DNA of 64,000 nt, taken from Lytechinus pictus. Taxonomy: Eukaryota. Shown here in pieces: positions 1,399-33,100 of this stretch. Made by a program: the position numbers and the translations under genes. The notes under the pieces are model-generated. The model made no database searches. It had not been told where the DNA came from and saw only the letters and a program-made list of their open reading frames with translations. Every line of letters starts with the position of its first letter. The first letter of the stretch is position 1. The DNA is taken from NCBI RefSeq assembly GCF_037042905.1, contig NC_087250.1:15626001-15690000 (forward strand), given 5' to 3'.

Positions 1399-4300
1399 GT
1401 GAGTCCTAATTTGTTTTCTCAAGGGGGCTGTCACTCGCACCTGGGGGGGGGGGGTGGGGAGGTGTTTCACAAAGTTTCTGATATATATGGTAGGCCTCTT
1501 CTCTTAGATTACTTAACTGTTGTCATGGAAAATCCAGCATTTTCTATATTCCAGAATTTATTTTAATTTCAATTTCCATGAATTTAGCTTATTCAGGAAT
1601 AAAAAAAATTAAATGAATGTGAGTTTCTGCAAAGTGTATTTTTAAGCATATTTAGTGATTGAAATTCAGGATAAAACATATTAATATTGCTAGAAGAGTA
1701 TGTTTTTAATTTTGTCTGTCTGTCTGGTGACAGGGATTCTTATGATGTTTTATTTCATCACAAGCTAGGTCCAAAATGTTCTTATAAATAGTACAATTCT
1801 GTTATTGTATACAAAATTTGCACTGATGATATTCTATGAGTGGAGCATGAGGGTTGGAATTAACTTGAAATGCGCTGTAAGTAATTATGGCCGCCAAGCT
1901 ATAGCTGGGGTAATAATATCCAAGATCTATAGAGGTGCATAGAGACATTAGAATCATAATGTGATATGCGCTATACAAGAACTGTTTCTGTTTTTATCAT
2001 TATTCTAATTTATCTATACAACAAGGATTCAGCAGGATTATTTTTTCTCGAGCCAAACAAGTAAAATGGTATCTGTGTTCTTTTCTCAGCTTACCTGAAA
2101 GAGCTTCAGAAACTATCTGTGCAGACGAATCAACTTACGCAACTCCCAAGATCCATAGGGTAAGGGAGTTGTTCAAAGATATTACAGTGAGGGTGATTGC
2201 TGCGAGTGTGAGTGAGATCCACCCACCCCCTTTGGTTGGCAAACACGCCCTTTGAATTGCGACACACCCCATTTGAATTTAGACACACCCCTTTCATTGG
2301 CACACACCGCTTCCATTGAGAAACACACCCCCTTTGAATTTAGACACACCCCTTTGAATTTAGACACCCCTTTCATTGGCACACCCCCCTTCCATTGAGA
2401 CACTCCTTCCATTGAGACACACTCCCTTTCAATTGAGCCACACACCCCCTTTGAATTGGCACACACCCCTTCCATTGAGACACACACTCCCTTTGAATTG
2501 AGGCACACCCCCTTTGAATTGGCACACACCCCTTCCATTGAGACACACACTCCCTTTGAATTGAGACACACCCCCTTTGAATTTAGACACACCCCTTTCA
2601 TTGGCACACACCCCTTCCATTGAGACACACACTCCTTCCATTGAGACACACACTCCCTTTCAATTGAGACAACCCCTTTGAATTGGCTCACACCCCTTCC
2701 ATTGAGATGCACACTCTGAATTGAGACACACCCCCTTTCATTGGCACACACCCCTTCCGTTGAGACACACACTCCCTTTGAATTGAGTCACACCCTCTTT
2801 GAATTGAGACACGCCCTCTTTTATTGAGTCCCACCATTTCCATTGTAACACACCCCCTTTCATTGAGACACGTGTGATATAACAATCTTATTAGAAAAAT
2901 AATGTAGCCATACCCCATCACACACTTTGCAAACCTTCAAGGATTACCTGATGGCAGCATGGTTCAAATTCATCAATAAATTTGTCTATTTATTTTCACT
3001 CTTCCCTAGGCGACTCACAAATCTGATCTACTTGAAGGCTGGCGAAAACAATTTGTCGTCATTACCTGAGGAAATAGGTGAGTCAAATTTGCAAACAGTG
3101 GTGGTGCCCTCTCACGGAGCATTTCAAGAAAATTCAAATCAATTGCAAGTCAATTTTGGCTTCCAAAATCAATCATAATTTTTGCAATGAATCACAAATT
3201 TTTACTCAATTGCTGGTCTACACTTTGAAACAAGAAGTCAAGTTGATTCTCTACAGTAAAAACTGATGTATGATTTTTAGGGTAAATTTGCGAATTAGGG
3301 TAAATTTGCAAATATTTTCTTCCTAGATTCCATTAGCAATGGTTTACATGTAGGTAACTCAAGATGAACTTAATCTATACTGGTATGGAATGTGAATTTA
3401 CAACTCATTAGCTAAGGGAACTTGATCGATTGAAGGATTTATTGAAAATATCCATCCTCAATTACAATTGTTACAATGTATTTACAAGATACTAAGTCTT
3501 TGGTACTTTTAGCCGTATTACTGCTGTATAAGGGTGCTATGCGTCTTCTCATAGAGGCTTTTCCGCAATCCCCATTATTTGTCTGTGATGTAATGTGATG
3601 ATTGGTGATGAAAAGCTGCTTGCATCTGGAATTAATTTGCATATCTGCTTCTTAATGCATCAAGTTCAAAATGATTTTCTGCAGTGAAGATTGATGTCAT
3701 CTGATCTTTTACTTCTCTTTGTTATATTTCAGGCTCGCTGGAACAACTTCAACAACTCTACATTAATGACAATCACAATCTTAATCATCTCCCATTTGAG
3801 CTGGCGTTATGTTCATCACTACAGATAATGAGTATAGAGAATTGCCCTCTCTCACAGATACCGCCAGAGGTGGTAGCAGGCGGGCCGTCTCTCGTTATAC
3901 AGGTGAGCGAGATTTCCCTTCTATTCTCTAACTAGTATAGAGAATTACCCTCTCTCGCAGATACCGCCAGAGTTGATAGCAGGTGGGCCGTCTCTCGTTA
4001 TACAGGTGAGCAAGATTTCCTCTTCTAATCTGCTATTAAGTATAGAGAATTGGCCTCGCAGATACCGCCAGAGGGGGTAGCATGCGGGTTGTCTCTCGTT
4101 GTACAGGTGAGCAAGATTTCCTCTTCTAATCTGCTATTAAGTATAGAGAATTGCCCTCGCAGATACCACCAGAGGGGGTAGCATGCGGGTTGTCTCTCGT
4201 TATACAGGTGAGCAAGATTTCCTCTTCTAATCTGCTATTAAGTATAGAGAATTGCCCTTGCAGATACCGCCAGAGGGGGTAGCATGCGGGTTGTCTCTCG

Positions 4301-5196
4301 TTATTCAGGTGAGCATGATTTCCTCTTCTATTCTATTAGTATAGAGAATAGCCCTCTCTCGCAGATACCGCCAGAGGCGGTAGCAGGCGGGCCGTCTTTC
4401 ATTATACAGGTGAGCAAGATTTCCTCTTCTATTATCCTGTTAGTGTAGAGAATTGCCCCCTCCCATATTTATAATTTTCAGCTTTTTTTGTACTTTGCAC
4501 AAAAGTATAGGTGCTTTGCAATTTTAGCTATTTTAATATTTGGTCATTCGCACCTTCTATAATTTTGGGGGCGTCGTGGTCTAGTGCTTATGACTCTTGT
4601 CTTTCAATCTGAGGGAACGTGAGTTCAATTCCCAGCCATGGCGTGTGTTCCTTCAGCAAGAAATTTACCCACATTGTGTTGCTCTCAACCCAGGTGAGGT
4701 AAACGGGTATACCCGGTAGGAAGACATTCCTTGAATGCCAGAGGGCATGTTGGCCGCACGGCTATCGCCAGGCTAATAATGATTACATTATTGCAATGCA
4801 CAGTTGAGTAGGTGCATGTATCCACCTTGTTAGGTGCTCAAGGCCCTCCTATGTTGCCTCGGCTGAATATAGCTAGTCTCCCGATTCCGGTGCTCACAGC
4901 TTTTTGACGAATTACTTCCTGCCGGTACCCATTTACCTCATCTGGGTTGAGTGCAGCACAGTGTGGGTAAATTTCTTGCCGAAGGAAAACATGCCATGGT
5001 TGGAAATCGAACCCACGTCCCTTAGATTGAAAAACGCGAGTCTTAACCACTAGACCATGATGCCCCCATTATATACATGTACAGATAGAGAAATTGTGTA
5101 ATATAAATGTACAATTATAATTATTTTTTGTTCTGTGTCTTTTGTGTATAGTACCTGCGATACCAGGGCCCCTATCGTCACATGGTGTCACTCTGA
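1311..5196 (+). CDS. SHOC2: Leucine-rich repeat protein SHOC2/soc-2 homolog, 3' part (5' end outside window). Exons 1311-1398, 2090-2159, 3010-3077, 3733-3902, 5152-5196
   Basis: GT-AG exons join in phase to [146 protein letters not shown]. This matches the distinctive SHOC2 C-terminus ([30 protein letters not shown]). Confidence 0.95.
2090..2159 (+). CDS. SHOC2: SHOC2 internal exon
   Basis: ttttctcag acceptor, (A)[22 protein letters not shown](G), gtaagg donor. Confidence 0.93.
2240..2870. repeat. Intronic minisatellite, about 21-bp unit (ccctttgaattgagacacacc variants)
   Basis: Tandem degenerate copies. Confidence 0.9.
3010..3077 (+). CDS. SHOC2: SHOC2 internal exon
   Basis: ttccctag acceptor, [22 protein letters not shown], gtgagt donor. 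Confidence 0.93.
3733..3902 (+). CDS. SHOC2: SHOC2 penultimate coding exon
   Basis: atttcag acceptor, [26 protein letters not shown]...GGPSLVIQ, gtgagc donor. Confidence 0.93.
3831..4460 (+). repeat. About 101-103 bp tandem repeat made of a SHOC2 exon 3' end plus its splice donor
   Basis: Six copies of ...ctcgttatacag|gtgagc, the first being the real exon end. Confidence 0.93.
4567..4790 (+). mobile_element. tRNA-derived SINE
   Basis: A-box tggtctagtg, B-box-like gagttcaattccc, central caacccaggtgaggtaaa.gggta; related copies at 4815-5067(-), 12827-13070(+), 15650-15907(-). Confidence 0.8.
4815..5067 (-). mobile_element. tRNA-derived SINE, same family, opposite orientation
   Basis: Reverse complement begins ggggcatcatggtctagtggttaagac...gggttcgatttcc. 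Confidence 0.8.
5152..5196 (+). CDS. SHOC2: SHOC2 terminal coding exon
   Basis: tgtgtatag acceptor, [14 protein letters not shown], stop TGA. Confidence 0.9.
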   Translation, partial: YLRYQGPYRHMVSL

Positions 5197-6026
5197 TTTC
5201 AATGGAGACGCACCTTGGATATTATGCAAACAGTACCGTGTAAACACTCCCCAGACAACATTTAAGACTTGTGGTAATTTATGTGTATATTCCATTGAGA
5301 AACGCTGGCTGTGTTAACGCTGGGAACTATAATCGAACTGCAAACGTCAGTGTTTTTATTCTATGTGGACAGCAGGAGGACTGCGAGAGGGTTGCGAGGT
5401 GGAGATACTGTGAAGACATTCCACTGCACGCTCTGTTATGTTAATACAACTCCCGTGATGCAGCGCTGTGTTCAGACTGATTGAAAGTGAATACAACGAC
5501 CCTCCATTCATTACAGTAATGAGTGAAACATGTATGACATGTATGAACACATAGCAGGATACCAATGAGGATTTGGATTCACCATGAATATATGTTGTAC
5601 AAGACGATTTATTCCTGCAAGGGTGGCGAGCTGTGTTCAGACGTATCAGAAATAAATGGTCTGATTCTCCAATCGTTCTGGTAACAAACATTATGCCATA
5701 TAAAAACTCAAAAAGATCTTAGCAGAGGAAGGAATGATTATAACCATGTATCTGTGCACTGCAAGCGATTAGAATTCTACAATATATTTGTGTTCTTCTT
5801 TTTTTCCATTCGTGTGAACGCATCTTTGCAATGGCTTCGTTTCATCAGAGAATACATTAACCCAACAGGATTTGTGCTTCAGCAATAAAGAACATTATCG
5901 GAAGCTTTCGCATTTGGATGAAAATAATACGCTGTGAGCCTTCACGAGTTGGTCAGTTCCATCTTCAGAAGATTTCTATACCACTGAGAAAGGAAATGCA
6001 CCAGGCTCTTCAGTGATCTATTGCAG

Positions 6027-6171
6027 GGGCCCGTTGCAGAAAGAGTTGCAATCAATCGCAACTCTAAAAATCATGTGCAACTTAATTTTCAACCAATCAA
6101 CAGCACGAATTTGGGACTTGCGATCGATTTTTCAACTTGCGTTTAAATGCAACTCTTTCTGCAACGGGCCC
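6027..6171. mobile_element. Short MITE, PIF/Harbinger-like
   Basis: TIR gggcccgttgcagaaagagttgca, CAG duplicated on both sides. Confidence 0.75.
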
Positions 6172-6839
6172 CAGGCCTGCCAACTACTCATTTTTTTCCA
6201 GGAGTTACCCCGTTTTTTTAGATTTTTTTTATCAACCAAAAAGAGGAGCACTCCATTTTTCCATATATTTACTTGTGTGATGGGGTATACTGTATGGATG
6301 TGTGTATGGGTGTAAGAGTAATATCGTTTTTCAACCCTTGTAATTTCTCAATGTTTAACTATAAGAATGCTAAACATGTCTTAAAGTAAAAAGAAGTGAG
6401 GGAGACGCATCTGACATCGAGCGGAAAAATTCGCGCCACGCGACATTTTCAAATGTTGGCAGACCTGCTATTGGGTTTATATTCAATTGCTTTACATGCA
6501 GTTGATCTATTTCTCAGATAGTCTTAATAAGCCAGTTCGTAGTTCCTTTCTGCGCATGATCAAAAGATTCTACGCATGATCAGAGGAAGGTCATTTGTAC
6601 TAAAGTGACATGGTGGTTTAAAATCTAATGAGATAAGCACCAACTTTGATGTCTTGATTATTCATATATTCTTTTGAATTGTGGTTTTCATTTACATCCA
6701 CAAAAAACAACGATGCGTCCACGAACGACTGGTATTTCACAAAGTTGTCCATGAATTAACTACGAACTGGTCTATTGCTTTACATGCAGTTGATCTATTT
6801 CTCAGATAGTCTTAATACTAGAAGGGCTTAACTCTTTTG

Positions 6840-7103
6840 GGCCCCACCTTACAAAGAGTTACGATTGATCTGATCACTTGCAACTATGGACGGCCAGCAA
6901 CGTCAACATATAATATTCATGTTTGTTCAAATATTTTCTAACTATAATGTATATTCATGCATTCATTTTCTTGAAAATTCACTGTGCTCTTAGTTTACAA
7001 AGGACATTGTGCAAATTTCCTATAGAAAAAATTATGACAATGATGGATTTCCATAGAGTTACAATCGATTTGATCAATCGTAACTCTTTGTAAGACAGGT
7101 CCT
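6840..7103. mobile_element. MITE (second copy at about 14805-15072)
   Basis: TIR cttacaaagagttacgattgatc / gatcaatcgtaactctttgtaag. Confidence 0.7.
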
Positions 7104-7817
7104 TGGTCTACTATCAATGTAGTCTATTTGCTGTTCGGTCTACACTCCAGTTAGTCTGATATCAACCCAAGTCTAATTGCTACTGAGTCTAATGCCCCAG
7201 TCTATCTAATTTCCACTTTATGGTACGTTTGCTTGGTTAAATGGGTCATTTTAGAGGGCTGGGTCCATTGTTGTGACATACTCAGTATTGGACCATGAGG
7301 AAAGAGACCTTACGGCAAGTAGTCAATTTACCATTCATTCACCATTACTGTGCAAGATGTAACCGCTCCTTAAATATTCTGTTGTCAATGGTATTATGTA
7401 AATGCATTAGAAGCATTATAAATTATTTATCCTGCAGTCTGCTGTACTTGACCTCAGCTTCAATATCCTTTCAGTAAACAATGTCGTGCTGCACAATATG
7501 ATGCACAAAATATTGTTAATTTAAAGCTTCAGTGAAAAAAACAAAGAATAATTGACCGCTTGTTTTATCACTTCTGACGATATCATGAACAAAAATTTAG
7601 GTTTCAGGATGTGTGACATGTCACCCATAAAACCACAAATAAATCGCCAAGGAATGTTCTCCGGAAATATGCAAAAAATTAAGTAAGAATTTGAACATGT
7701 GCTTATATGAAAGAGTAATGCTTGTTAATGCTGTCCAAATAGAGTTGTTGTGTTAAATGGCAGACAAGAGTTTCTCTGAAACCACCTTTTTTCTGGACTT
7801 TTAAGTTTCACATAGAT

Positions 7818-8055
7818 CATGTTGGCTCAGTGGTAGAGCGTCCGCCTCATGAACGGGAGGTCGTGGGTTCGATCCCTGGCCGAGTCATACCAAAGGCTTA
7901 TAAAAATGGGACCTTCTGCCTTCTTGCTTGGCGCTCGGCATTTAGACTGGAGAAGGGTAATAATAACATTATTATGTTATGCAGGGCCCGCTTGTAGAGC
8001 AGTTTCCTAACTGAAGTGGCTACCCTGGGTAAAGAAAACATTATTATTATTATTA
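7818..8055 (+). mobile_element. tRNA-derived SINE, second family
   Basis: tggctcagtggtagagc...gggttcgatccc head and (tta)n tail; related head at 63831-64000. Confidence 0.78.
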
Positions 8056-21084: not shown

Positions 21085-21137
<53 letters not shown>

Positions 21138-24100
21138 CACGAAATGGGTTTTATTTCGTGTTAGAAAATTATATTTGGTTGATTTATAATGATTTTGTCG
21201 TAGCTGGTGATATTACATGCATGTTTCTACACTAATAATGACGTCGATAAGAACATGAAAGTTATGCATGTTTTGAACCGTTTTTGTGGAATAACAATTT
21301 CCTGGAGATGTTTAACTGATTATTGTGGTTATCACTAGCTTGATCTAAATAAATGCTTTAATTTGGAGAGCAAAGTTATAGCTGTTCTAAGATTGTAACA
21401 GAGGTTAACTATAACAGATATTGTATAATTAATGCATAAATACAGTAAGTTGATGTACTCGTGAGGCTTTGCCTATAATTTGTTGAAATACGGCGCCCAC
21501 GGGGTGCATTGCACGTAAAGTATGCAAATTGATTTGGATTCGCTATCCAATAAATAAAGTTGGTGGATGCGATCGAAATGATTTATATGATCGTTCGCAT
21601 GTCATTCCACGGGGAAACCTAGGATGGATTTCTAGTCCTAGGCGACGACTGTGGTTAGATTTCCTTGTGTGTTGGGTCTTTTGCACGCCAGCAAGAGACT
21701 ATACCAGGGCTTGCTCTTTTGGTAGTCTGGTTCGTCTGGAGACGGACGGTTCGGAGTCTGGAGTAGACGGCTGGTGGTCCGGAGCAGACGGGTTGGTCTG
21801 AAGCGGATGGTTGCTGGTCTGAAGCAGACGGTCGGAGGTCTGGAGCAGACAACAGGAAAACTACAAGTAGAGCAGAGCCAATGGGTGTGGTCGTGAGAGC
21901 CTGACTGCAGAAGGACCCATACATATGGTCGAAGAACCAGACGTAGTTTCCAGTACTGAACAGACGTGGTTGCAGTACTGAACAGACGGTGTTGCAGTAC
22001 GGTATCAGACGTGCATGGTTGCTGTACTGAACAGACCTGGTTGCAGTACGGGATCAGACGTGGTTGCAGTACGGAGCAGACGTGGTCGCTGTACTGAACA
22101 GACGTAGTAATTGGTCGTAAGCAGACGACCGAGGAAATTACCAGAGTCCATAGGTATGGTCGTGGGAGCTTGACTACGGAGAAACCCATACCTATGGTCG
22201 AGATAGCTTAACTACAGGAATCAGATGCATATGGTCGAGAGGGCTTAACTACACAAGCTAGATGCATATGGTCGGGTGAGCTGTTGGAGCTGACAACAAA
22301 GAGTGTAGCCGTCTGGAGGTTGCCTGGTGGTGGTACTGACAGGATCGAGGCGTGTGCAAGTGTCAACTGCGGCAGTATATCTCTGCCAAACGGATCCGCG
22401 ACTAAAAGTTTGGAAATCGACGTGGCAAAGACACCCGCCGGCGGCAGGCATCCTGACAAGAGCGAGCTGCCGGCGGACCACCCAACAACCCCGCACAGCG
22501 ATTCCGTCACAATATATTGTCACGAAATAGGTTTTATTTCGTGTTAGAAAATAATCTTTGGTTGATTTATAATGTTTTTGTAGTAGCTGGTGATATTACA
22601 TGCGTGTTTCTACACTAATAATGACGTAGATAAGAACATGAAAGTTATGCATGTTTTGAACCGTTTTTGTGGAATAACAATTTCCTGGAGATGTTTAACT
22701 GATTATTGTGGTTATCACTAGCTTGGTCTAGATAAATGCTTTAAGTTGATATGTCATTCATGCATATCCAGTTTTAGAGAGCAAAGTTATAGCTGTTCTA
22801 AGATTGTAACAGAGGTTAACTATAACAGATATTGTATAATTAATGCATAAGTACAGTAAGTTGGTGTATTCGTGAGGCTTCGCCGATGATCTGTTAAAAT
22901 ACAGCGCCCACGGGGTGCATTGCACGTAAAGTATGCAGATCGATTTGGATTCGCTATCCAATAAATAAAGTTGGTGGATGCGATCGAAATGATTCATATG
23001 ATCGTTCGCATGTCTTTCCACGGAGAAACCTAGGATGGATTTCTAGTCCTAGGCGACGACTGTGTTTAGATTTCCTTGTGTGTTGGGTCTTTTGCACGCC
23101 AGCAAGAGACTATACCAGGGCTTGCTCTTTTGGTAGTCTGGTTGGTCTGGAGGCGGACGGTTCGGAGTCTGGAGTAGACGGCTGGTGGTCCGGAGCAGAC
23201 GGGTTGGTCTGAAGCGGATGGTTGCTGGTCTGAAGCAGACGGTCGGAGGTCTGGAGCAGACAACAGGAAAACTACAAGTAGAGCAGAGCCAATGGGTGTG
23301 GTCGTGAGAGCCTGACTGCAGAAGGACCCATACATATGGTCGAAGAACCAGACGTAGTTTCCGGTACTGAACCGACGTGGTTGCAGTACGGAATCAGACG
23401 TGCATGGTTACGGTACTGAACAGACGTGGTTGCAGTACGGAATCAGACGTGCATGGTTGCTGTACTGAACAGACCTGGTTGCAGTACGGGATCAGACGTG
23501 GTTGCAGTACGGAGCAGACGTGGTCGCTGTACTGAACAGACGTAGTAATTGGTCGTAAGCAGACGACCAAGGAAATTACCAGAGTCCATAGGTATGGTCG
23601 TGGGAGCTTGACTACGGAGAAACCCATACCTATGGTCGAGATAGCTTAACTACAGGAATCAGATGCATATGGTCGAGAGAGCTTAACTACACAAGCTAGA
23701 TGCATATGGTCGGGTGAACTGTTGGAGCTGACAACAAAGAGTGTAGCCGTCTGGATGTTGCCTGGTGGTGGTACTGACAGGATCGAGGCGTGTGCAAGTG
23801 TCAACTGCAGCAGTATATCTCTGCCAAACGGATCCGCGACTTAAAGTTTGGAAATCGACGTGGCAAAAGCACCCGCCGGCGGCAGGCATCCTGACAAGAG
23901 CGAGCTGCCGGCGGACCACCCAACCACCCCGCCCAGCGATTTCCGTCACAAGTGGTGTCAGAAGTGGGATCCAGTGACAATGGCACAACAAGGAAATATA
24001 CAGTATCGACCGACGCCAGGAGAAATGATGGCGCACTTGGAAAGAAGCATGACAGAAATTGACCAAAGGATGGAGCAGTTAAGATTGTCCATAAGACAAA

Positions 24101-27100
24101 CACCCGGTGCAGAATCAAGTGGACAAGATATTCCCCCAACTATGAGTGGACAAGCGGACAGAGAACCAAGGTATGACTCACAGAGGGAAGGGGCACAGCA
24201 GGCTGGATTCAGCTCAACGTCCAGAGAGCAGATGAGACGACCGTCTACTGCGAGACCCGGTGTTCATTTTACACCCCCACAGTTTTCCCCACATATTCAG
24301 GATGCGGGGATGGCAAATTTTGATGCTATGATTGGCAGACGACCACATCTGGTACCGGACAGATTTGATGAACGCACACCTGTCGAAGATTATTTGCATC
24401 ACTTTGAGGCCTGTGCTGGAGTAAATGGATGGACAAAAAGGGAAGCAGTTCAGTTTCTTGCTGCAAGTCTGAGGGGCCCTGCTGTGAAGTTGTTGACCCA
24501 ACAACCTGGAGTGGTGTTGACATACGACGAGTTGGTATACAGGCTCAGAAACAGGTTTGGCCTAGGAGGCAAAGCTGAGGTATACCTGGCGGAGTTGAGG
24601 CAACGTCGTCGCCAACCAAAGGAAAGTCTCCAGGAGTTAGGACAAAGAATACGGGAGCTGTGTTGATTGGCGTATCCCGAATTCGACGAAAAGGGGCAGG
24701 ATTGGCTTGCCCGAGGGCATTTCCTAGATGCCGTAGTAACACCAGAAATAAGAGAAGGATTATTCCGTGCTCAACCTCGCACATTGGATGATGCTGTGGA
24801 AGCTGCTTTAAACACAGAGGCCTTTCTGAGAATGGAGGGTCAGAGGAACGAAGTAAAGCGGGCTACAAGGTACAGCCGAGCTCTGGAAGAGCAAGAGTGT
24901 GAGGTTGTAGCAGTGCGGGAACATCAATCAAGGAATCCAACTATCGACAAGATAGTAAAGGCTGTCATAGACGCCTTGGATGAAAGAGACAGGACAAAGG
25001 AAACACAAATCAGGACCAAGTATCAGGAATCAAGAAAAGATGGCGTAGAGCCACAAAGAAAAAGAGAGGAACCAAATAAATCAAAGATTGATGAACAAGA
25101 GGAACAAAGATGTTTCAACTGCAATGGATTGGGGCATTGGAGGAAGAACTGCCCATATCCAAAGAAAATGAAAGGAGGAACAGCAGCTTTTCAAGTATCC
25201 GAAAGGGAAATGATGAGCGAAATAAAAGAGAAAGATGAACAAATCAGAGTCGGAACGACTCTAGATGGACAAGAGAAAAGAGGAACAGAGGAACAAACAA
25301 GAGTCGGAGCGACTCCAGATGGACAAGAGGAAAGAGGAACAAAAGAACAAGAAAAAGAGGAACAAACCAGAGTCGGAGCGACTCTAGATATCAAGAGAAA
25401 AGGGCTTTACCTTCAAGGCAGAGTAAATGGACAAGAATTAAAATTACTGGTCGACACTGGAGCTACCAACACTCTCATTGGAGAGAACGTGTTTGACCAG
25501 ATAGAGGAAATCAGAAAACCAGAATTACTACCAGTGACAAGTGTTGTACTACAAGCAGATGGATCTCAATTGAGAATCAGAGGAAAGTCAATGCTGGAAG
25601 TGCAGATTGGAGATATAGTCGTCACTACAATGGCTCCAGTGGCAAGTCTAAAGAATGAGGGCATTTTAGGGCTAGATTTCCTAGTCAAAATCAATGCTGT
25701 ATTAGACTGCCAAAAGATGGAATTGAGGACCAACTATGGCATAATTCCATGCCTAGATAGTAACGGAGAATCATTCTGCAGGAGGATAGTAGCGGGAGAA
25801 GATTATTCGATTCCCCCAGGACACGAGATGGTATTAGCAGAGGAAAGAAATAGACGAGCAAGTAAAGAATCTACTAGCTCAGGGCCTGATTGAGCCAGTG
25901 ACCAGCCCATGGGCATCCAACATCGTACTGGTCAAAAAGAAAGATGGCAGCCAAAGATTGTGTGTTGACTACCGTCAACTCAATGCGGAGACGATTAAAG
26001 ATGCCTACCCGCTGCCAAGAATTGATGACACACTAGATTCACTTGCAGGAGCACAATGGTTCTCAACCTTAGATCTTGCAAGTGGCTACTGGCAAGTTGA
26101 ACTAACTGAAGATGCCAAACAGAAATCGGCGTTTATTGCCAATGGCGCCCTCTACTCCTGGAAAGTAATGCCCTTTGGGTTATCAAACGCACCTGCAACC
26201 TTTAGCAGATTGATGGATCGTGTGTTAGCTGGACTCAAATGGGATACACTACTTGTATATCTTGACGATGTGATAGTTCATGCCAAGTCCGTGGAAGCTG
26301 AACTGGAACGACTGAGAGTGGTATTTCAGAGATTACGCCAAGCAGGCCTCAAGGTGAAGCCATCAAAATGTCACTTATTCCACACCAGCGTCCATTTCCT
26401 GGGACATGTGGTTTCAGCAGAAGGAGTAGCAACAGAACCGGACAAATTGGAAGCTGTTCAGAGGTGGCCAGAACCTACCATGGTTGGAGAAGTTAGAAGC
26501 TTTCTAGGCCTGGTATCTTACTATAGGCGTTTCATCAGAAACTTCTCTAACATCGCAAGACCACTACAAGAACTTACTGAAAAGAACCATAAGTTCGAAT
26601 GGACAGATCAATGTCGGGCTTCATTCCAAGAGCTCAAGGAACGGTTAGTGTCACCGCCTATTCTTGCTTATCCACAGCCAGAGGGACAGTTTGTACTGGA
26701 CACGGACGCAAGTGATTATGCAGCTGGTGCAGTGTTATCCCAAATCCAGGATGGCGAGGAAAATGTTATCGCCTATGGCAGCAAGACTTTCAACAAGCCA
26801 GAGAGAAACTATTGTGTTACACGGAAGGAACTCTTGGCCATTGTAATGTTCCTAAAACAATTCAGACCATACCTATATGGAAGACCAGTCCGGGTTCGAA
26901 CAGACCATGGCTCTCTCCGCTGGTTAACCAAGTTCAAAGACCCTAAAGGACAGATGGCCAGATGGATGGAGATAATTTCAGAATTTGACATCGAAATCCA
27001 GCATCGAGAAGGTCGTAAACATGGTAACGCAGACGGTATGTCAAGACGACCATGTCGACAGTGTGGACGAACTAATGACGACATTCAGGAACAGGTACAA

Positions 27101-30100
27101 CTGGTTGAAACAATCACTGACCGGACCTCACAGGAGATAGCTGACTGGCAAGAAGCGGACAAAGACATACGTCCTATCTACACGGCCAAGAAGCTTGACA
27201 ACAAGCCTAATCGAGATGAAACTTGCACATGGTCCTTGGCTTCTAGACGTCTTGTGGAATATTGGGATGCCTTAGAACTGAAAGAAGGAGTGCTTTTCCG
27301 ACGATGGGAATCAAATGACGGCAAAATGATCACGTGGCAGTTAGTCGTGCCCAGGAAAATGGTACCAGAAGTAGTACAGCTTGTCCATGCTGCAAAGTTA
27401 TCAGGGCACTTTGGCCTTTCCAAGTGCTTGGGTCGTGCAAGGCGGAAATACTTTTGGGTCGGCATGACTGCTGACCTTCGTTCAGCTTTACGCCAATGTG
27501 ATGTCTGTGCCAGGCGAAAACTCCCTACCAGGACTCGGAGAGCACCACTCCAGCAAAGAATAAGTGGCTATCCTATGGAAAGAGTAGCAGTGGACATCCT
27601 TGGACCACTACCAGAAATTACTGAGGGCAACAAATATGTTGTAGTAGTCGGTGATTATTTCACCAAATGGGTGGAAGCGTTTCCTGTACCAAATGAGAAA
27701 GCCAAGACTGTTGCAGAGAAGTTAGTGGAAGAATTCTTTTGTAGATTTGGGGTGCCCAGATATCTACACTCTGATCAGGGACGCAACTTCGAATCCGAAG
27801 TATTTGGTGAAGTCTGCAAGTTGATGGGGATATCCAAAACCAGAACAACCCCCTACAACCCAAAGTCAGATGGAATGATAGAGAGGTATAACCGTACCCT
27901 GATTGACACCATAGCACCCATGCTAGACCCAGCAGCTCACCAGAGGGACTGGGACAAATACCTTGCTTTTGCCACTGCTGCATACAGGAGCTGCCCACAG
28001 GAATCTACAGGTGAAACGCCCAGTATGATGATGATGGGGCGTGAAGTCGTTCTACCACCTGATCTTGCAATTCCACCAATACCAGGCACCACTGAAGATC
28101 TGGACACAGACTACGCCTTGAAGCTTCGTGAGATCATGAGAAATGTTCATGAAAAGGCTCGGGACTCTCTGAAAGAGGCAGCTAGTCGCCAGAAGCAACA
28201 CTATGACAAAGCAACTGAATCAGTCCAATTTCACCCTGGAGAGTTTGTGTGGATGAGGAAGAAGACTAGAGAGAAAGGACTCGCACCAAAGCTCCAACCC
28301 AGATGGCTTGGACCATACTTGGTCGTCACTAAACTTTCTGATGTGACTTTTCGCTTGCAACTTTCTCCAAGATCACACCCAATTATTGTCCAGGCAGATC
28401 GACTCAAACCATACACTGGTGCAGCAAGAGACGTGTGGCAGTACGACTCCTCCGCCTCCAGACCACCAGACCACCAATAAGAGCTAGTGTTGGGGACGCT
28501 GATTAGCAAATTGTTGCAAAAACACTAAGGCCTCCATGATTTTAGGCCACATAGAAAGACCAAAAAAAAAAATAAATATTGAGCTGAATAATGAGACGAA
28601 TCCTAATGATTTAAAGGGAAAACTGTTGTGACATGTTTTTTAATCACCTTTCTCACGAGCTAATTTCCTTTATGTCTCAACAGAAACATGTCTTCCGATA
28701 AGCAGGAACAAGATGATAGACGCACTACAACCCGTCGTTACCAGTGTGAATCTTGTGACAAGACTTATGAAAAAAAGAGTCTCTTCAAAGACACAAGAGA
28801 GAAATCCATATCAAGAAGTTCCGCTGCAATGAATGCGATTACCGGACTGGGAGGAAAGCCGAGATTGAGCGCCATCAAGCGGCTCATGCTACAGCTATAG
28901 CTCAAGAGAGAAAGCACAGCTTTACGCGTGTCTACTCGCCAAGATGTAAACCTTCTTCGACAACAACGAAAGCCAGTGAGAAGGAAGATTCTAATTGGCG
29001 TCTTGTTCGTATGGACCCTATGCCGCCGCATCGGGAAGACAAGGATCCATGACTGAGTCGATCTCTTATGAGGTCACCACGTCGCTCTGACTCTCGCTCA
29101 CCACGTCGGGCAGAACGTGCTAGTTCGGCTCGTCACTCCCGTTCCCGATCACCAAGACGGAGGTCCAGGACACCACAAAAGGACATGCCTAAATCATCCG
29201 TTCCAGATTCTCCAAAGTCTCCTCAACCTCACCGATCAGAAGTGTCTCCACGGCATGGTCAGAATTCTACCCCTGAACCAGAGGAGGAGCTGGACTATGA
29301 TGAGAGGTCGCCTTCACCGCTTGATTTGAGATACGCTTCTAGGAAAGTGGTGTCGGAGATGCCGTCTACCAGTGACTGGATAGAATGCACTGGTAAGGAT
29401 GCTGAAACGCAGACTGACAACCCTCGCCAGAGAATTCAGGCAATCTTACAAGAGATGAGAGCCGGCGGATCAGAAGAGGTGACCCTGAACAAGTCAACCG
29501 ACACATTCCAGATTCCCCCAGGTGTCATCTTTGTTCGTACCATGGAACGTTACATCACTAAGGAAGGAGAACTGTTAGAAGTAGTGACAGAGGAACTCAA
29601 GAAGAAAGAGTCGTCTTGAACAGTATCTCTCGTGTTCTTTGGAGTTGTGTTGTTAATACAAGTTCACTATAAGAAGGCATGTCATCATGTACCTTGGACA
29701 TTATTTTTCATGCCGCATAGTTTTAGAGTTTTCTTTGGACTTTAGCTGTTGTGTTTTGTTGAACCTGAACATAAGTGTTTTTAGGACTCCTTTATCCGTT
29801 TTTGTGTGTGGAGAAAAGACACAATGGACAGCAATTCCGTCACAATATATTGTCACGAAATAGGTTTTATTTCGTGTTAGAAAATAATCTTTGGTTGATT
29901 TATAATGTTTTTGTAGTAGCTGGTGATATTACATGCGTGTTTCTACACTAATAATGACGTAGATAAGAACATGAAAGTTATGCATGTTTTGAACCGTTTT
30001 TGTGGAATAACAATTTCCTGGAGATGTTTAACTGATTATTGTGGTTATCACTAGCTTGGTCTAGATAAATGCTTTAAGTTGATATGTCATTCATGCATAT

Positions 30101-33100
30101 CCAGTTTTAGAGAGCAAAGTTATAGCTGTTCTAAGATTGTAACAGAGGTTAACTATAACAGATATTGTATAATTAATGCATAAGTACAGTAAGTTGGTGT
30201 ATTCGTGAGGCTTCGCTGATGATCTGTTAAAATACGGCGCCCACGGGGTGCATTGCACGTAAAGTAGGCAGATCGATTTGGATTCGCTATCCAATAAATA
30301 AAGTTGGTGGATGCGATCGAAATGATTCATATGATCGTTCGCATGTCTTTCCACGGAGAAACCTAGGATGGATTTCTAGTCCTAGGCGACGACTGTGGTT
30401 AGATTTCCTTGTGTGTTGGGTCTTTTGCACGCCAGCAAGAGACTATACCAGGGCTTGCTCTTTTGGTAGTCTGGTTGGTCTGGAGGCGGACGGTTCGGAG
30501 TCTGGAGTAGACGGCTGGTGGTCCGGAGCAGACAGGTTGGTCTGAAGCGGATGGTTGCTGGTCTGAAGCAGACGGTCGGAGGTCTGGAGCAGACAACAGG
30601 AAAACTACAAGTAGAGCAGAGCCAATGGGTGTGGTCGTGAGAGCCTGACTGCAGAAGGACCCATACATATGGTCGAAGAACCAGACGTAGTTTCCGGTAC
30701 TGAACCGACGTGGTTGCAGTACGGAATCAGACGTGCATGGTTACGGTACTGAACAGACGTGGTTGCAGTACGGAATCAGACGTGCATGGTTGCTGTACTG
30801 AACAGACCTGGTTGCAGTACGGGATCAGACGTGGTTGCAGTACGGAGCAGACGTGGTCGCTGTACTGAACAGACGTAGTAATTGGTCGTAAGCAGACGAC
30901 CGAGGAAATTACCAGAGTCCATAGGTATGGTCGTGGGAGCTTGACTACGGAGAAACCCATACCTATGGTCGAGATAGCTTAACTACAGGAATCAGATGCA
31001 TATGGTCGAGAGAGCTTAACTACACAAGCTAGATGCATATGGTCGGGTGAACTGTTGGAGCTGACAACAAAGAGTGTAGCCGTCTGGATGTTGCCTGGTG
31101 GTGGTACTGACAGGATCGAGGCGTGTGCAAGTGTCAACTGCAGCAGTATATCTCTGCCAAACGGATCCGCGACTTAAAGTTTGGAAATCGACGTGGCAAA
31201 AGCACCCGCCGGCGGCAGGCATCCTGACAAGAGCGAGCTGCCGGCGGACCACCCAACCACCCCGCCCAGCGATTCCGTCACAATATATATATATATATAT
31301 ATATGGGAAATTCAATAAAATTTGTACATCCGACCCCATGTATGTGAGACCTTCATGAAATTTTCTGGTTCACATGACAGTCTTTAATGTTCTCAAATGA
31401 CCATGACTTGGTCAATTTTTAAATGAAGTAAGAATTTAACAAAATGGGGGTTGGACATACAAAATGGTTGAATATTTTATGGAATTGCCCATATACACTG
31501 TATATACTTACACAAATATTTATTAACAAAGCAACATACATCACAAATACAAGACACGTTTGCGATGGAACGACATCAAGGAGCAGACGTGAAATACCAT
31601 AAAATGAACTTCATTAAATTCTAAATCTTCTTTCTTTTACATGATGAGAAATTATTACTTTTTATTTGATTGGAGTTGGATGATACTATCTGTCATATTT
31701 ACCATTTGACTGCTCATCCATTGAGTACTGCAGGACAAAGTAGCCACTGTTTCTCCAGAATTCAAAATCACGGAAAAAAGTATCTCCGACGTGAGAATTA
31801 AAGGCAAACTGAAATATCCTCAACTACAAATAAAAATATAGAAATAGGAGGCGTAACAATAAAAGGCATAACAAAATTTCCTGAACGACATGTACAAATG
31901 AAAATGTAGAAATAAAGAGGCATAAAAAAGACATAACGAAATACCCTGAACTACAAATGAAAGCATAGAAATAATAAGCGAAATGTGAATCAAAGTCACT
32001 AAGACATTGGTTAGCATTACAAAGGTATTAAAAAAAAACTTTGGTGTTTTAATTTATTTAATATTGTTTATATGCATGAAAAACAATTAGAAATAAATCT
32101 AATGTGTTACCCCCGGGTATTAAAGCAGTTCTGAAAGTATTCAACATTTTGTAAGTGTATGCATGCATGTTGATCCAAAATTGCCCCAAAACGTGTATGC
32201 ATGTGACAATGGCCCATATTCTGAAGTCAAGTTTAAATTAAACCCTGGTTTAAAGTTGTGGTTAACCCTATCTTAACTGGGCTATTTCGGACCAATATAC
32301 TGGAGTGGGTCAATATGACCCCCCCCCTCAGATCTCGGCCGCTGATTACGCGATTGCCACGAAAATTTGCACACGCGTAGAGCCGGATGTAAACTACAAG
32401 ACTGTATAGAAAATTCTTCAAAATATTAATTGTTTATATTTTTTTATTAATTAATTATGCAAATAAGCGTATGAAATTTACCCTAAATTTGGTTTTTTGT
32501 GTATGTTTTTGCCTTAAACTCAATTTATATAGCTAGAAGAATGCTTATTTTTGGTGGGAGTATCAATTATTACATTTGCAACTAATATCTACAAAAAATT
32601 GCAAAAATATGATTAATTTCTTATGTATTTTATTATTTTTTAAATTCTTATGTATTTCTTTGTTTTTTCAAACCTTTGTTTTTTCCGATGAACTTTGTCA
32701 GGGACCCTTTTGCGATCATAAATAGCATAAAATGAATCCATTAAAACCAACAAAAGTGAAAATAATCATACATTTATGATTTTTGGTTGATAAACACAAT
32801 TTGCATTGACTTTGTACATGGAATCACGTTTTTGAGCAATTTCGGGTCTGACATGCACTTACAAAATGTTGCGTAATTTCGGAACCACGTACCCGGGCGT
32901 CGCAAATTTGGTCTAAAAAGATGCGCAAGACTTGAAAGTAAAAAGTCAGTGAACGGTGCGGTAAAAAAATTTGGCGCGACGGCATAGTGACAAAATTTGT
33001 CGAGGGGGGGGGGGTCAAATTGACCCCCCAGTTTAATAAGGGTTAAACTATGGAGAGCCAAATGGGACACAAATCCCTAACAGTATACATCCAATTCATT

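Follow-up and report, generated by a model that had tools for sequence, protein, structure and literature searches.

An accessory gene with C2H2 zinc fingers and an RS-rich linker in the env position of Ty3/Gypsy retrotransposons of Lytechinus pictus

What does an LTR retrotransposon encode between pol and its 3′ long terminal repeat (LTR), when the reading frames found there look like no envelope? A locus of the sea urchin Lytechinus pictus raises this question in a stretch of 64,000 nucleotides from contig NC_087250.1 (assembly GCF_037042905.1, forward-strand positions 15,626,001 to 15,690,000), which we call the window and whose own numbering we use; all window features described below lie on its forward strand. 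Positions 28655-29619 belong to a Ty3/Gypsy (Metaviridae) retrotransposon with the Pfam domain order zf-CCHC, gag-asp_proteas, RVT_1, RT_RNaseH, Integrase_H2C2, rve, and they form its third gene, ORF3. An earlier reading of the sequence alone had proposed an element-encoded accessory gene in the env position here rather than an envelope, and that proposal stands: ORF3 is very probably a real, conserved, non-envelope accessory gene, because its product has no hydrophobic segment and because it lies beside pol in several Gypsy lineages.

In the window ORF3 is present as three colinear pieces between pol and the 3′ LTR, at the coordinates where they had been placed. Piece A (28688-28777), which begins MSSDK, runs from the start codon through the first half of finger 1, with its two cysteines; piece B (28771-29049), which is shifted into the −1 frame, contains the finger 1 histidines and the whole of finger 2; and piece C (29053-29616, stop codon 29617-29619) contains an arginine-serine (RS)- and serine-proline (SP)-rich stretch followed by the C-terminal domain. 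The two breaks also lie where they had been reported, a one-base frame change at an A7 run (28770-28776) between A and B and an in-frame TGA (29050-29052) between B and C. When the pieces are read through with an X placed at each break (310 positions), the product is colinear with five intact relatives and identical at 129 of 272 aligned positions (47%) to P0029, a 289-aa protein from the cluster lists that is the closest intact relative of the window gene. The pair of C2H2 zinc fingers (28745-28887) has the correct spacing that had been claimed for it: finger 1 (28745-28809) is C-x2-C-x12-H-x4-H only if read through the frame change, and finger 2 (28825-28887) is C-x2-C-x12-H-x3-H and lies entirely in piece B. 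Downstream are the RS/SP-rich low-complexity linker (29068-29300) and the conserved C-terminal domain (29374-29616).

The same gene recurs in related elements. Searching the genome with piece B returned a repeated 269-codon open frame in at least seven places (E = 1.4e-11, 48-49% identity), and the C-terminal domain of a relative finds piece C at E = 1.8e-8. The 269-codon frames belong to a sister Gypsy family with a single 1687-codon gag-pol frame, whose pol is 65% and whose gag is 42-44% identical to that of the window element; its ORF3 encodes 248 aa, starts 203 nt after the pol stop, ends about 400 nt upstream of the 3′ LTR and is open in six of the nine copies found, the other three being disrupted by a TAA, by a frame change and by truncation at the 5′ end. 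With the sister ORF3 as query, 5.8 billion proteins yielded five with the same three-part architecture at 97, 61, 50, 39 and 36% identity, and the protein databases contain four further intact ORF3 lineages; a second homology search with P0029 as the query found no additional members. The adjacency to Gypsy pol is seen in the sister family, in a metagenome contig (L038) where a pol tail and a 229-nt spacer precede ORF3, and in a third Gypsy lineage of the genome (pol 59% identical) that retains a 20-aa remnant of the domain directly after pol. Capture of a host gene by the window copy only, a possibility that the sequence-only reading had raised against itself, is excluded, since ORF3 is shared by related elements. 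The named sources of ORF3 are all Lytechinus pictus, listed as ‘zinc finger protein 672-like’, ‘zinc finger protein 774-like’ and ‘serine/arginine repetitive matrix protein 2-like’ (SRRM2-like), and we read these entries as transposon genes annotated as host genes.

The main argument for selection is that the ORF3 frame stays open and colinear at 33-47% identity between lineages in which gag is 42-44% identical. Comparison of piece C with internally deleted derivatives of the window family gave dN/dS values of 0.28-0.40 for four copies that are related and thus not independent, with binomial p values of 0.017 (L002) and 0.0016 (L007).

ORF3 products are about 250-320 aa long and consist of two classical C2H2 fingers, the RS/SP-rich linker and a C-terminal domain of about 75 aa. 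Piece B matches Pfam zf-H2C2_5 at 28.6 bits (cutoff 27) and the ORF3 of a relative matches zf-C2H2 at 29.5 bits (cutoff 25.2); the finger pieces match only C2H2 models, piece C matches nothing in Pfam, and the Pfam scan of the ORF3 pieces shows no similarity to env or fusion glycoproteins. A profile search of the PDB likewise found matches only to the finger pair, all of them classical DNA-binding tandem C2H2 proteins (Aart at 4.7e-11, CTCF, ZNF568 and Ikaros), and none to the rest of the protein. Finger 2 (CDYRxGRKxxxExH) is near-invariant between lineages and finger 1 is more variable, and the H-to-C linker between them has 5 residues, where 7 is canonical in C2H2 arrays. The long RS/SP linker varies in length and is unalignable between lineages, whereas its richness in RS and SR dipeptides is constant (15 in the window read-through and 19-24 in relatives, with 5-15 SP per protein); arginine makes up 13-18% and serine 12-15% of the residues of ORF3 proteins. 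A 19-aa Kyte-Doolittle scan of the window read-through and three relatives found no hydrophobic segment (maximal mean 0.37-0.53), and the N-termini of all four are hydrophilic and not signal-peptide-like, which bears out the earlier statement that signal peptide and transmembrane segment are missing.

The C-terminal domain has 15 invariant columns in five sequences, the window included. The AF2 model of a relative is poor overall (mean pLDDT 55.8), with a C-terminal helix and three strands at pLDDT 71-86 and a linker below 50 that is predicted to be disordered. A profile of the domain matches 6 of 1.84 billion cluster representatives, all of them members or fragments of the ORF3 family, and to judge by sequence it has no homologues outside this family. 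Comparisons of structure gave leads at most: a VIA-align fold search against 48,161 chains had a best Z of 4.0, with COMM-domain at Z 3.3-3.6 and Rad52 at Z 3.0, Foldseek against the PDB returned nothing at E ≤ 0.001 (best RAD52, E = 4.7e-3, TM 0.13/0.23), and an ESM Atlas feature search with the domain gave no usable match.

How ORF3 might be expressed is suggested by the 207-nt spacer that separates it from pol (28481-28687). As the sequence-only reading had noted, the spacer ends in an acceptor-like signal (28660-28683), consisting of a branch-like CTAAT (28660-28664) and a pyrimidine tract (0.81 pyrimidine) that ends in CAG (28665-28683), 4 nt before the ATG. When such sites are defined as a YAG with at least 70% pyrimidines at −20 to −5, the 5.9-kb internal region of the window element contains five and the 6.3 kb of the sister element four, and in both families one of them lies 3-4 nt ahead of the ORF3 ATG. 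In L038 a TTGCAG with a weaker tract (0.62 pyrimidine) lies 1 nt ahead of the ATG, so that a YAG motif is found 1-4 nt before ORF3 in three of three lineages, whose spacers are similar in length (207, 203 and 229 nt) and otherwise unalignable. Because this acceptor-like motif has been kept in position, and it is our sole evidence on the point, we lean towards expression of ORF3 by splicing. The sister LTR also contains one good donor candidate, AGG/GTGAGT, which scores 6.0 on a position weight matrix (PWM).

Taken together, we think the overall best explanation, by a modest preference, is that ORF3 is a spliced-RNA gene for a nuclear, post-transcriptional regulator. ORF3 would be translated from a spliced subgenomic mRNA, with the conserved YAG 1-4 nt upstream of the ATG as acceptor and a donor probably in the LTR or leader; the RS region would bring the protein into the nucleus, the fingers would bind the element’s own nucleic acid, and the protein would then act post-transcriptionally, steering the splicing or export of intron-containing genomic RNA much as Rev, Rex and the CERV protein of Cer1 do, with phosphorylation of the RS/SP stretch as a possible switch. 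The product fits retroelement regulators made from spliced RNA in that it is soluble, combines a finger pair with an RS/SP region and a small fold, and lies downstream of pol with an acceptor-like site ahead of it. An element that splices must still export its unspliced genome, and in host adaptors for splicing and export it is the RS region that does the work. For both reasons we favour a post-transcriptional role; this specific role we put forward tentatively, as a minority probability. More speculatively still, this sea-urchin Gypsy clade might comprise ‘complex’ retroelements with an independently evolved spliced regulatory gene that imitates host SR proteins, in which the C2H2 pair would recognise element RNA, kinases would control how the RS/SP region draws in or redirects the host's splicing and export machinery, and the C-terminal domain would assemble the complex, so that unspliced genomic RNA is exported.

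Several observations weigh against this reading. No convincing donor was found in the window, where the best candidates (22856, 23592 and 24171) score 3.0-4.0 on the same PWM. Of the sequencing runs on record as RNA, none is listed for window positions 28480-29800 (word shares ≤0.13), and RNA reads were mapped not to the window but to the intact sister family (L036:1930-9238), whose larger number of intact copies made expression seem likelier. Three runs gave 36, 39 and 22 reads (97 in total, depth ≤2), with none on gag-pol (3638-8029) and no joint at that depth, and a few reads from diverged copies run unbroken across the sister acceptor. Reads over the sister ORF3 and the 560 nt upstream are mostly 90-95% alike and probably derive from a truncated, diverged copy; because the mapping contains no transcripts of intact elements, it is not decisive on splicing. 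On the protein side, ORF3 has no Pfam match to an RRM (at E up to 0.1) or to any other RNA-binding module, and the finger pair looks classically DNA-binding, which would be no less fitting for a transcription factor than for an RNA binder. Four of the derivatives are truncated alike, ~30 residues short of the end of the C-terminal domain; those copies thus do without the full domain in cis, as would be expected of a factor acting in trans. The signals of selection are modest: the dN/dS of piece C is 0.63 against L005 and 1.08 against L006, and among six intact sister copies 7 synonymous and 13 nonsynonymous sites vary (ratio ~0.55, p = 0.15). Finally, a close Gypsy lineage (L014) is without ORF3, which makes the gene specific to a clade.

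Given the classical look of the fingers, the main rival is that ORF3 is a transcriptional transactivator or repressor whose fingers act on LTR DNA, like foamy-virus Tas or HTLV Tax, with the RS region serving only nuclear import or co-factor docking. The PDB matches of the finger pair to DNA-binding tandem C2H2 proteins speak for it, as does variation by lineage at base-contacting positions 2 and 3 of finger 1 (in our own numbering), which would suit fast-diverging LTR targets. Finger 2, however, is near-invariant although the LTRs of the two families are unrelated in length (1433 nt in the window and ~1008 nt in the sister family), the linker between the fingers is shorter than the canonical one, and RS domains are typical of RNA-processing factors; we regard LTR control as possible and rather unlikely. 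Somewhat less probable in our view is an anti-silencing or chromatin-directed factor that would oppose silencing by piRNAs or heterochromatin, or else anchor integration in certain chromatin. In favour of this role, the protein is soluble, its RS linker and fingers are features of a nuclear type, and its orphan C-terminal domain could bind a host protein; ORF3 also evolves about as fast as gag (38% vs 42-44% identity), which is compatible with a host-conflict interface; yet neither Pfam nor structure searches revealed similarity to a known silencing suppressor or chromatin reader, and conservation is highest in finger 2 and the C-terminal strands, which lack the rapid change expected at such an interface.

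That ORF3 is a passenger, a captured fragment of a host zinc-finger or SR-type gene with no role in the life cycle, is very improbable. The NCBI pipeline does give sister-family copies host-type names (672-like, 774-like, SRRM2-like), and deletion derivatives have spread without the finger half, but at least four Gypsy lineages, at 33-47% identity, have the gene in its post-pol position with the frame kept open. The fingers have no close host paralogue either, since the best genome match to the finger piece outside element copies is at E = 0.019, and the C-terminal domain, nearly absent from the 1.84 billion representatives, has 16 genome matches, of which all those placed are element copies or remnants (the surroundings of L048 being left out). 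Least probable of all is that programmed recoding joins the window gene, the ribosome slipping by −1 on A AAA AAG and reading through the stop, for although this heptamer (28771-28777) is in register with the piece A frame and a slip would yield the correct x12 finger spacing, five of five aligned intact relatives carry finger 1 in a single continuous frame with a linker free of stops, three of three other same-family copies covering 29050-29052 have a sense codon at the TGA site, and the same copy has three further lesions. On these alignments both breaks are damage confined to the window copy and not recoding. The −1 slip that the sequence-only reading had entertained is thereby contradicted, the slippery-looking heptamer being a coincidence of an A-run indel given continuous relatives and open same-family copies.

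The rest of the window element is in a similar state: with an in-frame stop in gag, a 478-nt deletion across protease (PR) and reverse transcriptase (RT), a lost polypurine tract and the two ORF3 breaks, this copy is, judged by its lesions, dead. Its gag (23980-25893, ATG at 23980) encodes a CCHC knuckle and an aspartic protease, and the stop at 24664-24666 is a sense codon in three of three other copies covering the site. The deletion, at 25837-25840 relative to other copies and the sister family, removes the PR C-terminus, the PR-RT linker and the RT N-terminus, for which the counterpart is present at L002:654-1131. Copies that retain the 478 nt, and the sister family, have gag-PR-pol as one continuous frame, and it is because of the deletion that gag-PR and pol lie in different frames in the window, where the remainder of pol (25838-28480; RT, RNase H and integrase) is open for 880 codons up to its stop at 28478-28480. 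Towards the 3′ end an abnormal junction (29790-29850) precedes the LTR, without the polypurine tract that is present in three of three other copies examined (L002, L003 and L007).

Three LTRs are arranged in the order LTR1, ATATAT, LTR2, internal region, LTR3, with the whole structure inside a (TA)n microsatellite, which makes target-site duplications unreadable. LTR1 (21135-22511) is an older, extra copy, 93.2% identical to the 3′ LTR and followed by ATATAT at 22512-22517; LTR2, the 5′ LTR (22518-23950; TGTCACG...CCGTCACA, with TG...CA ends), is 99.5% identical to LTR3, the 3′ LTR (29851-31282), beyond which the (TA)n microsatellite resumes. The 5′ and 3′ LTRs differ by 6 mismatches and 1 gap over 1434 columns. 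The 23 nt ahead of the 3′ LTR (29828-29850) are identical to the junction of the LTR1 end with ATATAT (22495-22517), which suggests recombination or gene conversion between LTR junctions, and because of this possibility the 99.5% identity need not date the insertion. Two nt past the 5′ LTR lies an 18-mer that starts with TGG and resembles a primer-binding site (23953-23970); this sequence, TGGTGTCAGAAGTGGGAT, is identical in both families (~4774-4791 of the reverse complement of L036+L037 in the sister copy), in spite of their unrelated LTR lengths.

The sister copy at L036/L037 (G000:C8:6726300-6739300) has both gag-pol (1687 codons) and ORF3 open; its 3′ LTR is interrupted by an insertion of ~1.2 kb, and the LTR contains ~25-nt tandem repeats. 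An 80-nt piece of sister LTR at L036:8233-8314 is covered in all three RNA runs and in one contig set by reads that extend on either side into sequence unrelated to it, and is probably a stretch of LTR carried within a different transcript. The lineage without ORF3, L014 (G000:C8:23719420-23723007), has an integrase whose C-terminus is extended by a ~200-aa acidic repeat tail rich in Pro and Asp; L014 and five similar loci (L015-L019), among which L014 is the one that was read, have 68-70% nucleotide identity to the window in the integrase region.

For the finger half of ORF3 (28655-28980) there is no other same-family DNA copy in the 812-Mb assembly. The other family members are internally deleted derivatives that consist of gag, two small pol fragments and ORF3 from ~28980, 29001, 29106 or 29175. 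In L002, L004, L006 and L007 (G000:C21, C4, C8 and C11), gag-PR and pol fragments are fused in frame to the RS/C-terminal part of ORF3 in open frames of 677, 642, 316 and 577 codons; the fusion junctions show at least two independent deletions, both in frame, with microhomology and without GT..AG. We considered whether the derivatives could be retrotransposed spliced RNAs and rejected this, as junctions 26030/27076, 27287/28980, 27255/29001 and 25275/29175 are without GT..AG and have short microhomologies.

Third genes in this position have precedents with which ORF3 can be compared. In errantiviruses, env (ORF3) is expressed from a spliced subgenomic RNA, and like env of Drosophila gypsy, ZAM and Idefix, the gene described here is the third open reading frame of a Ty3/Gypsy element and lies 3′ of pol, ahead of the 3′ LTR; unlike env, it has no signal peptide, transmembrane segment or env family match and encodes a zinc-finger/RS product. 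Complex retroviruses encode, 3′ of pol and on spliced mRNAs, small nuclear arginine-rich proteins (Rev, Rex, Rem, Rec, Tas and Tax) that control unspliced-RNA export or LTR transcription, from which ORF3 differs in having no Pfam homology beyond C2H2 and an RS/SP-type region in place of an arginine-rich RNA-binding helix. Among cellular proteins, canonical SR splicing factors have one or two N-terminal RRMs, and SR or SR-related zinc-finger proteins such as SRSF7 and ZRANB2 pair a zinc module with an RS region. ORF3 similarly joins a nucleic-acid-binding zinc module to an RS-rich disordered region (15-24 RS/SR dipeptides); in contrast to these proteins it has no RRM, has C2H2 rather than CCHC or RanBP2 fingers, ends in an orphan C-terminal domain and is encoded by a transposon. 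Additional open reading frames have reportedly been found in plant LTR retrotransposons, including an orchid Ty3/Gypsy example, and these too would be lineage-specific coding capacity fixed in Ty3/Gypsy, in other hosts and with different proteins, none of which is described in the literature searched as combining C2H2 with RS.

A further likeness, drawn by description and not by sequence, is to CERV of the C. elegans Ty3/Gypsy element Cer1. The published account describes CERV as a non-structural accessory protein of 517 aa that is nuclear, is made from a spliced mRNA of five exons overlapping gag, is divided into H, M and G domains and is needed for the export of unspliced genomic RNA; it has a Cys-rich putative zinc finger, flexible linkers between its structured domains, and a dependence on Ser phosphorylation (PMC10309623). 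ORF3 combines comparable parts, namely fingers, a phosphorylatable linker and a small folded domain, whereas CERV has neither the C2H2 pair nor the RS domain. No description of a C2H2/RS ORF3 in Gypsy elements was found in the full-text literature searched, a scope that leaves out most subscription journals and Repbase. We therefore present ORF3 as an LTR-retroelement accessory gene with a new architecture of C2H2 pair, RS linker and orphan domain, of which the window copy is a decayed example.

In practical terms, current annotation takes these transposon genes for host genes, under the names ‘zinc finger protein 672-like’, ‘774-like’ and ‘SRRM2-like’. It is above all their accessory regulatory genes that set complex retroviruses apart from simple retroelements, and outside the vertebrate retroviruses the only studied case in the literature searched is CERV of nematode Cer1. 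If the tentative picture of an SR-mimicking export factor is true, a Rev-like function would have arisen independently for the third time, the earlier two cases being complex retroviruses and Cer1. As a conserved third gene of new architecture that is not an envelope, ORF3 of echinoderm Gypsy elements would offer a fresh system in which to ask how retroelements that splice export their unspliced genome and how often that solution has evolved.

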